A stretch of 63,805 bases of DNA, filler included. It is 16 parts of 16 records of this genome, joined end to end, with 100 filler letters (N's around TTAATTAATTAA, not from the genome) between each part and the next. Parts side by side here need not be neighbours in the genome. Positions count along the whole stretch, not along the records: positions 37,497 to 40,085 come from SRR11831580_5634; 15 more parts are not named here. The stretch is one strand, 5' to 3'. The position numbers and the translations under genes were made by a program. Below, piece by piece: positions 37,629 to 37,923 of this stretch. The notes under the pieces are model-generated. The model worked only from the letters and a program-made list of their open reading frames with translations. It was not told the origin of the DNA and made no database searches. Every line of letters begins with the position of its first letter. Positions within the stretch are counted from its first letter, which is position 1.

Positions 37629-37923
37629 TCGAATAGGGCCACTTTCTTCGGATCGAGGTTGCGGGCCTGCAATGGATGAGGCTTCAGATTGGTCAGCAGC
37701 ACGTGCTCCCCAGTCTTCACGATGAACTTGGTCTGCAGGCGCGCCAGCGGCCAGCGGAGAAGCTCCACGATGTCTGCTTGAGTCAGCTCTCCAGGGGGCT
37801 TCGGCATCAAAACCTTGTCTGCGCACGGTTCAGACGCGATCACGTGCACATGCAGTAAGTACATTTAGCTTCGGTACCGGGAGGACCTGATGCAGGCTGC
37901 GCAAGCTGTTTCTTCGGCGGCAT
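37629..37923 (-). CDS. Spliced gene, 5' part (exons about 37923-37863 and 37818-37629); ParB-like N-terminal domain suspected; truncated
   Basis: Joined reading MPPKKQLAQPASGPPGTEAK-YKVLMPKP...HVLLTNLKPHPLQARNLDPKKVALF; GTAC..CAG intron restores the frame; the next donor GTACGT at 37628 opens the palindrome-containing intron. Confidence 0.55.

Follow-up and report, generated by a model that had tools for sequence, protein, structure and literature searches.

The start of a putative spliced gene divergent from a Ginger/gypsy-type integrase gene and its resemblance to the N-terminal box of ParB

ParB-like proteins encoded beside transposase-type genes have been described in algae. In the available part of PMC12477816, the element Sola1-1_Ec32 of Ectocarpus is described as carrying a gene for a 1104-aa protein, composed of a ParB-like domain and a DNA methyltransferase, on the strand opposite to the transposase. 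In the red alga Bostrychia, the accessible text of Petroll et al. (bioRxiv 10.1101/2025.02.11.637652) describes Plavaka accessory gene 3 (PAG3), the product of which combines a weakly ParB-like N-terminus (with an HHpred E value of 0.29 in the authors' own search) with a 2OG oxygenase, and beside which tandem arrays of inverted repeats are located. Dam methylases fused to a ParB-HTH module are ascribed to chlorophytes and chytrids in the portion of PMC4738411 at hand. An earlier note on the DNA analysed here had proposed that a divergent partner gene has a ParB-like N-terminal signature and had regarded it as unusual for a eukaryotic transposon to carry a ParB-like gene that is spliced, a judgement that is softened by these algal precedents.

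The window, that is, the whole stretch of DNA that was analysed, consists of 63,805 bases in which 16 draft contigs of 2.1–7.5 kb each are joined by N44-TTAATTAATTAA-N44 linkers, and it thus represents several molecules. Most of the contigs are enterobacterial and E. coli-like, with transketolase, parC, the ugp operon, iscS and ggt among the assignments when 126 stop-to-stop frames with a minimum length of 115 aa were scanned with Pfam, and four contigs (21269–26840, 37497–40085, 56679–58803 and 61712–63805) are eukaryotic-looking or unassignable. For contigs 21269–26840 and 56679–58803, no confident Pfam family was found in frames of at least 115 aa. A frame at the start of contig 61712–63805 (61714–62181, plus strand) contains an FTO C-terminal domain (Pfam E = 2.2e-18), for which a word-based search returned no relatives among longer proteins, and the frame 26418–26840 (minus strand) gives a weak MyTH4 match (E = 4.6e-4) that is under the Pfam cut-off and lies on a 5.6-kb contig where numerous open frames overlap and no further family was recognized. 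A Pfam scan (E ≤ 0.05) of the other eukaryote-like contigs in the window, which covered 100 stop-to-stop frames with a minimum length of 60 aa, returned no ParB family. The locus considered here is the eukaryote-like contig 37497–40085, with a length of 2589 bp, which contains the start of a divergent gene on the minus strand and an integrase gene on the plus strand, and both ends of which fall within genes or introns.

The integrase gene is predicted to contain three exons on the plus strand. Exon 1 (38123–38236), which reads MNTEPHAV...YIGGH and ends at a GTGTGA donor, is weakly coding-like, with a codon log-odds of +2.6 bits, whereas the two remaining forward frames gave −23 and −29. Intron 1 (38237–38450) contains four copies of a palindrome that is described below, and a telomere-like TTAGGGTTAGGGG stretch is located just past its donor, at 38251–38263. 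Exon 2 (38451–39479) encodes an H2C2 zinc finger and an rve (DDE) core, with Pfam E values of 1.6e-13 for rve and 1.6e-6 for Integrase_H2C2; it is followed by intron 2 (39480–39628), with three further palindromes, and by exon 3 (39629–40085), which encodes the C-terminal part, is open at the contig end and has GC contents of 0.65/0.50/0.71 at codon positions 1/2/3. Near the start of exon 2, at 38523–38580 on the plus strand, the stretch FPNYAYIYYYL recalls, without matching it exactly, the YPYY motif (Y/F-P-Y/F-Y/F) that has been described in Ginger1 and in certain gypsy integrases. Upstream of the integrase lies the divergent gene and no pol frame.

No relatives of the integrase of similar length were found, and a search of genome contigs with the integrase yielded seven seeded stretches and no relative; among longer proteins, three of 1358 candidates matched it at E ≤ 0.001, the best of which was P0003, a protein of 780 aa with 29% identity and an rve and OTU domain composition. 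This composition is that of the Ginger1 transposase as given in the accessible part of Bao, Kapitonov and Jurka (2010; PMC2836005). As in the Ginger1 elements described there, the present gene is a stand-alone, intron-bearing gypsy-like integrase with an H2C2 finger and a DDE core, whereas the second divergent gene and the internal palindrome arrays of the contig have no counterpart in that description. The terminal repeats, the 4-bp target duplications and the C-terminal OTU/Ulp1 protease of Ginger1 fall outside the view offered by the contig, which ends inside exon 3 at 40085.

The partner gene is read on the minus strand from an ATG at 37923, and it would be transcribed divergently from the Ginger/gypsy-type integrase gene across a spacer of 199 bp between the two ATGs (37924–38122). 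Putative exon 1 (37878–37923), which encodes MPPKKQLAQPASGPP plus one base and is weakly supported, is followed by a putative 59-nt intron (37819–37877; GTACCG...GCGCAG, with the acceptor AG at 37820–37819), which lacks the palindrome and for which two donors are available, GTACCG at 37877 or GTACTT 15 nt downstream, both in phase 1. The coding-like exon 2 (37629–37818), which encodes (D)KVLMPKPPGELTQADIVELLRWPLARLQTKFIVKTGEHVLLTNLKPHPLQARNLDPKKVALF, extends to a putative GA|GTACGT donor, so that the visible product amounts to about 77 residues; the start of putative intron 2 (37497–37628) carries two palindromes of 22 bp and runs off the contig end. Direct reading of the minus strand agreed with the earlier note in the sequence, the coordinates and the donor ambiguity. 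In contrast to its description, the end of the peptide is set by the putative donor at 37628 and not by the end of the contig; beyond this donor the contig continues for 132 nt to 37497 with no in-frame stop and a codon log-odds of −2.4 bits over 43 codons.

The evidence that exon 2 is coding is good. Under a log-odds model of codon usage that had been trained on the integrase gene, exon 2 scored +26.6 bits in the frame given above and the other five frames were all negative; its GC contents at codon positions 1/2/3 were 0.66/0.34/0.76 versus 0.59/0.42/0.73 in the integrase exon, and in a sliding window the coding signal extended from about 37876 to about 37636 and fell after the donor. When 658 open windows of 62 codons were taken from the remaining eukaryote-like contigs, only five reached the codon score of exon 2. 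It is very improbable, in the face of this single-frame signal, its coding-type GC periodicity and its sharp drop at the donor, that the region is no gene at all but a chance open frame in GC-rich DNA, although eight stop-to-stop frames of at least 100 aa, many of them overlapping, occur within the 2.6 kb of the contig, exon 1 is devoid of coding signal and the exhaustive phmmer search described below returned no homologue. Exon 1, with its MPPKK start, was codon-neutral (−0.9 bits over 15 codons), and an internal ATG of exon 2 (MPKPP) provides an alternative start that dispenses with intron 1. The interpretation of the MPPKK start as a nuclear-localization signal is speculation, since exon 1 has no coding support and the internal ATG requires no intron.

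Database searches with the peptide returned no family. Pfam gave no families at E ≤ 10 for 62-, 31- and 75-residue pieces of the peptide, and the complete frame of 122 aa matched none at E ≤ 1; PHROGs and NCBIfam gave no matches, no PDB sequence matched at E ≤ 10 and the ESM Atlas contained no usable match for either the whole peptide or residues 33–62. An absence from Pfam would be expected even for a true ParB member, because at most about a third of the ParB domain is present. The exhaustive phmmer search of 1,835,955,588 representative proteins returned no ParB among the matches and only two proteins, P0001 and P0002, at E ≤ 0.001, which were rejected as relatives because their scores are inflated by six and three internal repeats, respectively, and their Pfam matches are incoherent. 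Both match query residues 10–52, the helical front part of the peptide, away from the PxPxQxR loop, and P0001 also shares VLLTNLK. P0002 is an unnamed protein of 458 aa with 30% identity to the peptide over 37 residues by BLASTP, and its thrice-repeated L[ST]xxxIVxLxxWPxxxxQxxF is resembled by LTQADIVELLRWPLARLQTKF (37720–37790, minus strand; peptide residues 9–34). Two viral-contig loci (L033 and L034) were likewise discarded, as they share only the eight-residue seeds WPLARLQT and LTQADIVE within unrelated frames. In a single-sequence AlphaFold2 prediction with a mean pLDDT of 59.8, the only helix spanned residues 13–35 and the ParB-like part had a pLDDT below 50; the helical front part may be a small helical motif of a DNA-binding type.

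The ParB-like stretch itself, GEHVLLTNLKPHPLQARNLDPKKVALF, comprises 27 residues (37631–37711, minus strand) at the end of exon 2. The explanation that follows the earlier note most closely is that the locus belongs to a mobile element with an integrase, for which the partner gene encodes an accessory protein of the ParB/Srx type that binds the 22-bp palindromes. Exon 2 would then end in the first strand and the PxPxQxR loop, and the GxxR box, probably together with a DNA-binding or DNA-modifying domain, would be located in the missing exons; the protein could either spread or clamp on the palindromes, in the way that ParB acts at parS, or recruit an enzyme domain to the DNA of the element, as proposed for PAG3 in the available text. 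We consider this explanation to be doubtful.

Thirty chromosomal ParB N-domains and 20 divergent ParB-like domains, obtained by a PF02195 search of 61 genomes, were built into home-made profiles, against which the peptide was run with HMMER without filters, with 20,000 shuffles for each profile. In all three profiles, as well as in hhalign, peptide residues ~35–59 align to profile columns ~13–38, which is the register of the N-terminal box. This register is the part of the proposed signature that stood; the match itself was not significant. The peptide scored 0.2 bits against the profile of the 30 chromosomal ParBs (reached by 1442 of 20,000 shuffles), 1.5 bits against the profile of all 50 sequences (224 of 20,000) and −0.5 bits against that of the 20 divergent domains alone (1445 of 20,000), and hhalign gave P = 0.063 with a probability of 0.9%. 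The whole-box ParB PSSM gave 7.5 bits with one gap after the arginine, a score matched by 118 of 5000 shuffles, and among the matches listed from 1319 open frames at least eight unrelated segments of the window scored 10.7–15.1 bits. The near-invariant proline of QPR in the 30 chromosomal ParBs is an alanine in the peptide. It also counts against the accessory protein that the motif was spotted by eye, and that many other families could have been recognized in the same way.

Some of the results are more favourable to a ParB-type protein. Matches at the N-terminal end of the broad profile that run off the end of the peptide were obtained for only ten of 20,000 shuffles, under a geometric criterion that was set post hoc, and the core expression [ILV].[ILV]..[ILV].P.P.Q.R, which was composed after the peptide had been seen, has a single match among the 127,606 six-frame residues of the window, versus 0.0096 expected from composition, and is present in nine of the 30 bacterial ParBs. 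As a positive control, the 20 genuine divergent ParB-like domains were cut at the same column, whereupon they scored −0.2 to 17.8 bits against the chromosomal ParB profile with a median of about 2, and 19 of the 20 reached the 0.2 bits of the peptide. The profile test therefore has little power, because genuine ParB domains cut at this position mostly score little better than the peptide. The start of a true ParB would look much like the peptide, and so do 1–7% of random sequences, which corresponds to a likelihood ratio of roughly 3–13 in favour of ParB, set on a low prior. The GxxR (GERRxRA) arginine box, which is the CTP-binding motif, would, as the earlier note had it, lie past the exon and past the contig end at 37497, and the 27 residues are unable to decide the ParB reading. 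The reading that we favour, with about an even chance of being correct, is that exon 2 belongs to a genuine protist gene, spliced and without a recognizable family, of which the 5′ end is visible and in which the resemblance to ParB is due to chance or is unprovable: it would be accounted for by a short hydrophobic strand that leads into a P-x-P-x-Q-x-R loop, a combination that many proteins can show.

The palindromes provide a second line of comparison with the algal systems. The perfect 22-bp palindrome GTTTGCTCATCGATGAGCAAAC occurs in nine copies with at most one mismatch within 2.1 kb, versus 0.01 expected, a density that would suit an accessory protein with its own binding sites. The copies, which are spaced about 45 or 75 bp apart, form three arrays of two, four and three members: at the left contig end in putative intron 2 of the partner gene (37497–37518 and 37572–37593), in integrase intron 1 (starting at 38282, 38327, 38371 and 38418) and in integrase intron 2 (starting at 39484, 39529 and 39572). 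All nine are thus within predicted introns of both genes, and none is in the 199-bp spacer. An exact scan found no palindrome loci in genome contigs and none in viral contigs; two loci in metagenome contigs, where only one copy each was present and tblastn returned no related protein, were taken as chance. The junction TTCGA|GTACGT is common to 37623–37634 on the minus strand and 39475–39486 on the plus strand (with the integrase donor at 39480), at two palindrome-bearing introns, and the first palindrome of integrase intron 2 starts 4 nt after the donor G. The palindrome arrays could have arrived as an inserted element supplying its own splice donor, in the manner of an introner.

This arrangement bears on a further explanation, namely that the partner gene is an ordinary host gene adjoining a domesticated or decayed integrase, and that the palindromes are an intron-dwelling repeat family unrelated to either protein. 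Their exclusive location in introns fits such a family, the shared junction is more suggestive of an inserted repeat than of a binding array, and, with regard to the earlier description of the contig as a transposon, neither terminal repeats nor target duplications are in view on its 2.6 kb. However, all nine matches in the window at up to three mismatches are on contig 37497–40085 and the palindrome is missing from the other eukaryote-like contigs, and the codon usage of the exon is closer to that of the integrase gene than is that of the other eukaryote-like ORFs tested. On balance, a host gene with unrelated palindromes appears to be quite improbable, although less so than a chance open frame.

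Compared by description with PAG3, as presented in the available text of bioRxiv 10.1101/2025.02.11.637652, the locus shares an accessory-type gene beside a transposase-type gene, a weak N-terminal likeness to ParB and arrays of inverted repeats beside the gene. PAG3 differs in that it is described there on Plavaka/EnSpm, Zisupton or Fanzor-type elements and contains a 2OG-oxygenase domain, whereas the neighbour on this contig is an rve integrase and the palindromic repeats are inside introns. The idea that the contig with the FTO domain supplies the 2OG-oxygenase half of a PAG3-like gene was considered and dropped, as this contig lacks the palindrome and has no link to contig 37497–40085. Also by description, the partner gene resembles the accessory gene of Sola1-1_Ec32 in being on the strand opposite to a transposase-type gene, although the Sola1-1_Ec32 protein, with its 1104 aa and methyltransferase domain, is part of a 21.5-kb element according to the accessible part of PMC12477816, and only the ~77 visible residues, with no recognized domain, can be set against it. 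By analogy, an opposite-strand partner gene together with palindrome arrays would raise the prior for a ParB-like protein.

In bacterial ParB/Spo0J (PF02195, ParB_N), a hydrophobic strand, a P-x-P-x-Q-x-R loop and the start of an acidic/hydrophobic helix follow one another near the N-terminus, and the same order is found in the peptide, which, like the bacterial proteins, has palindromic sites near its gene. The differences are the replacement of the QPR proline by alanine, the one residue missing after the arginine and the lack of a Pfam match; the GERRxRA box, the HTH and the dimerization domain of ParB/Spo0J are outside the visible sequence, and the palindrome of this locus, with a length of 22 bp, is arrayed at ~45 bp in introns.

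In conclusion, this analysis describes a contig on which an integrase gene and the start of a putative spliced gene without a recognizable family diverge from a 199-bp spacer. The two genes may form one unit with a shared bidirectional promoter, and the product of the partner gene may be a nuclear, DNA-associated accessory factor of this unit. As it stands, the 77-residue gene start without relatives decides nothing alone, and its main value is as a pointer to a contig that combines an integrase, a divergent partner gene and intron-borne palindrome arrays. It is unlikely that a Ginger-type integrase element of a protist encodes a ParB-like DNA clamp of its own, possibly dependent on CTP, that loads on the 22-bp palindrome arrays in the introns of the two genes of the element; if this were true, it would represent a eukaryotic parS/ParB-like module to mark, partition or modify the DNA of the element itself, and the ParB-like accessory genes newly described in algae would then also have a counterpart on integrase-type transposons and in a further lineage of eukaryotes. 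A transposon-borne ParB-like module is a recent idea, put forward for red, brown and green algae, and, if the ParB reading is right, the present locus would be another independent eukaryotic transposon with a bacterial-type DNA-binding module beside an array of its own binding sites.
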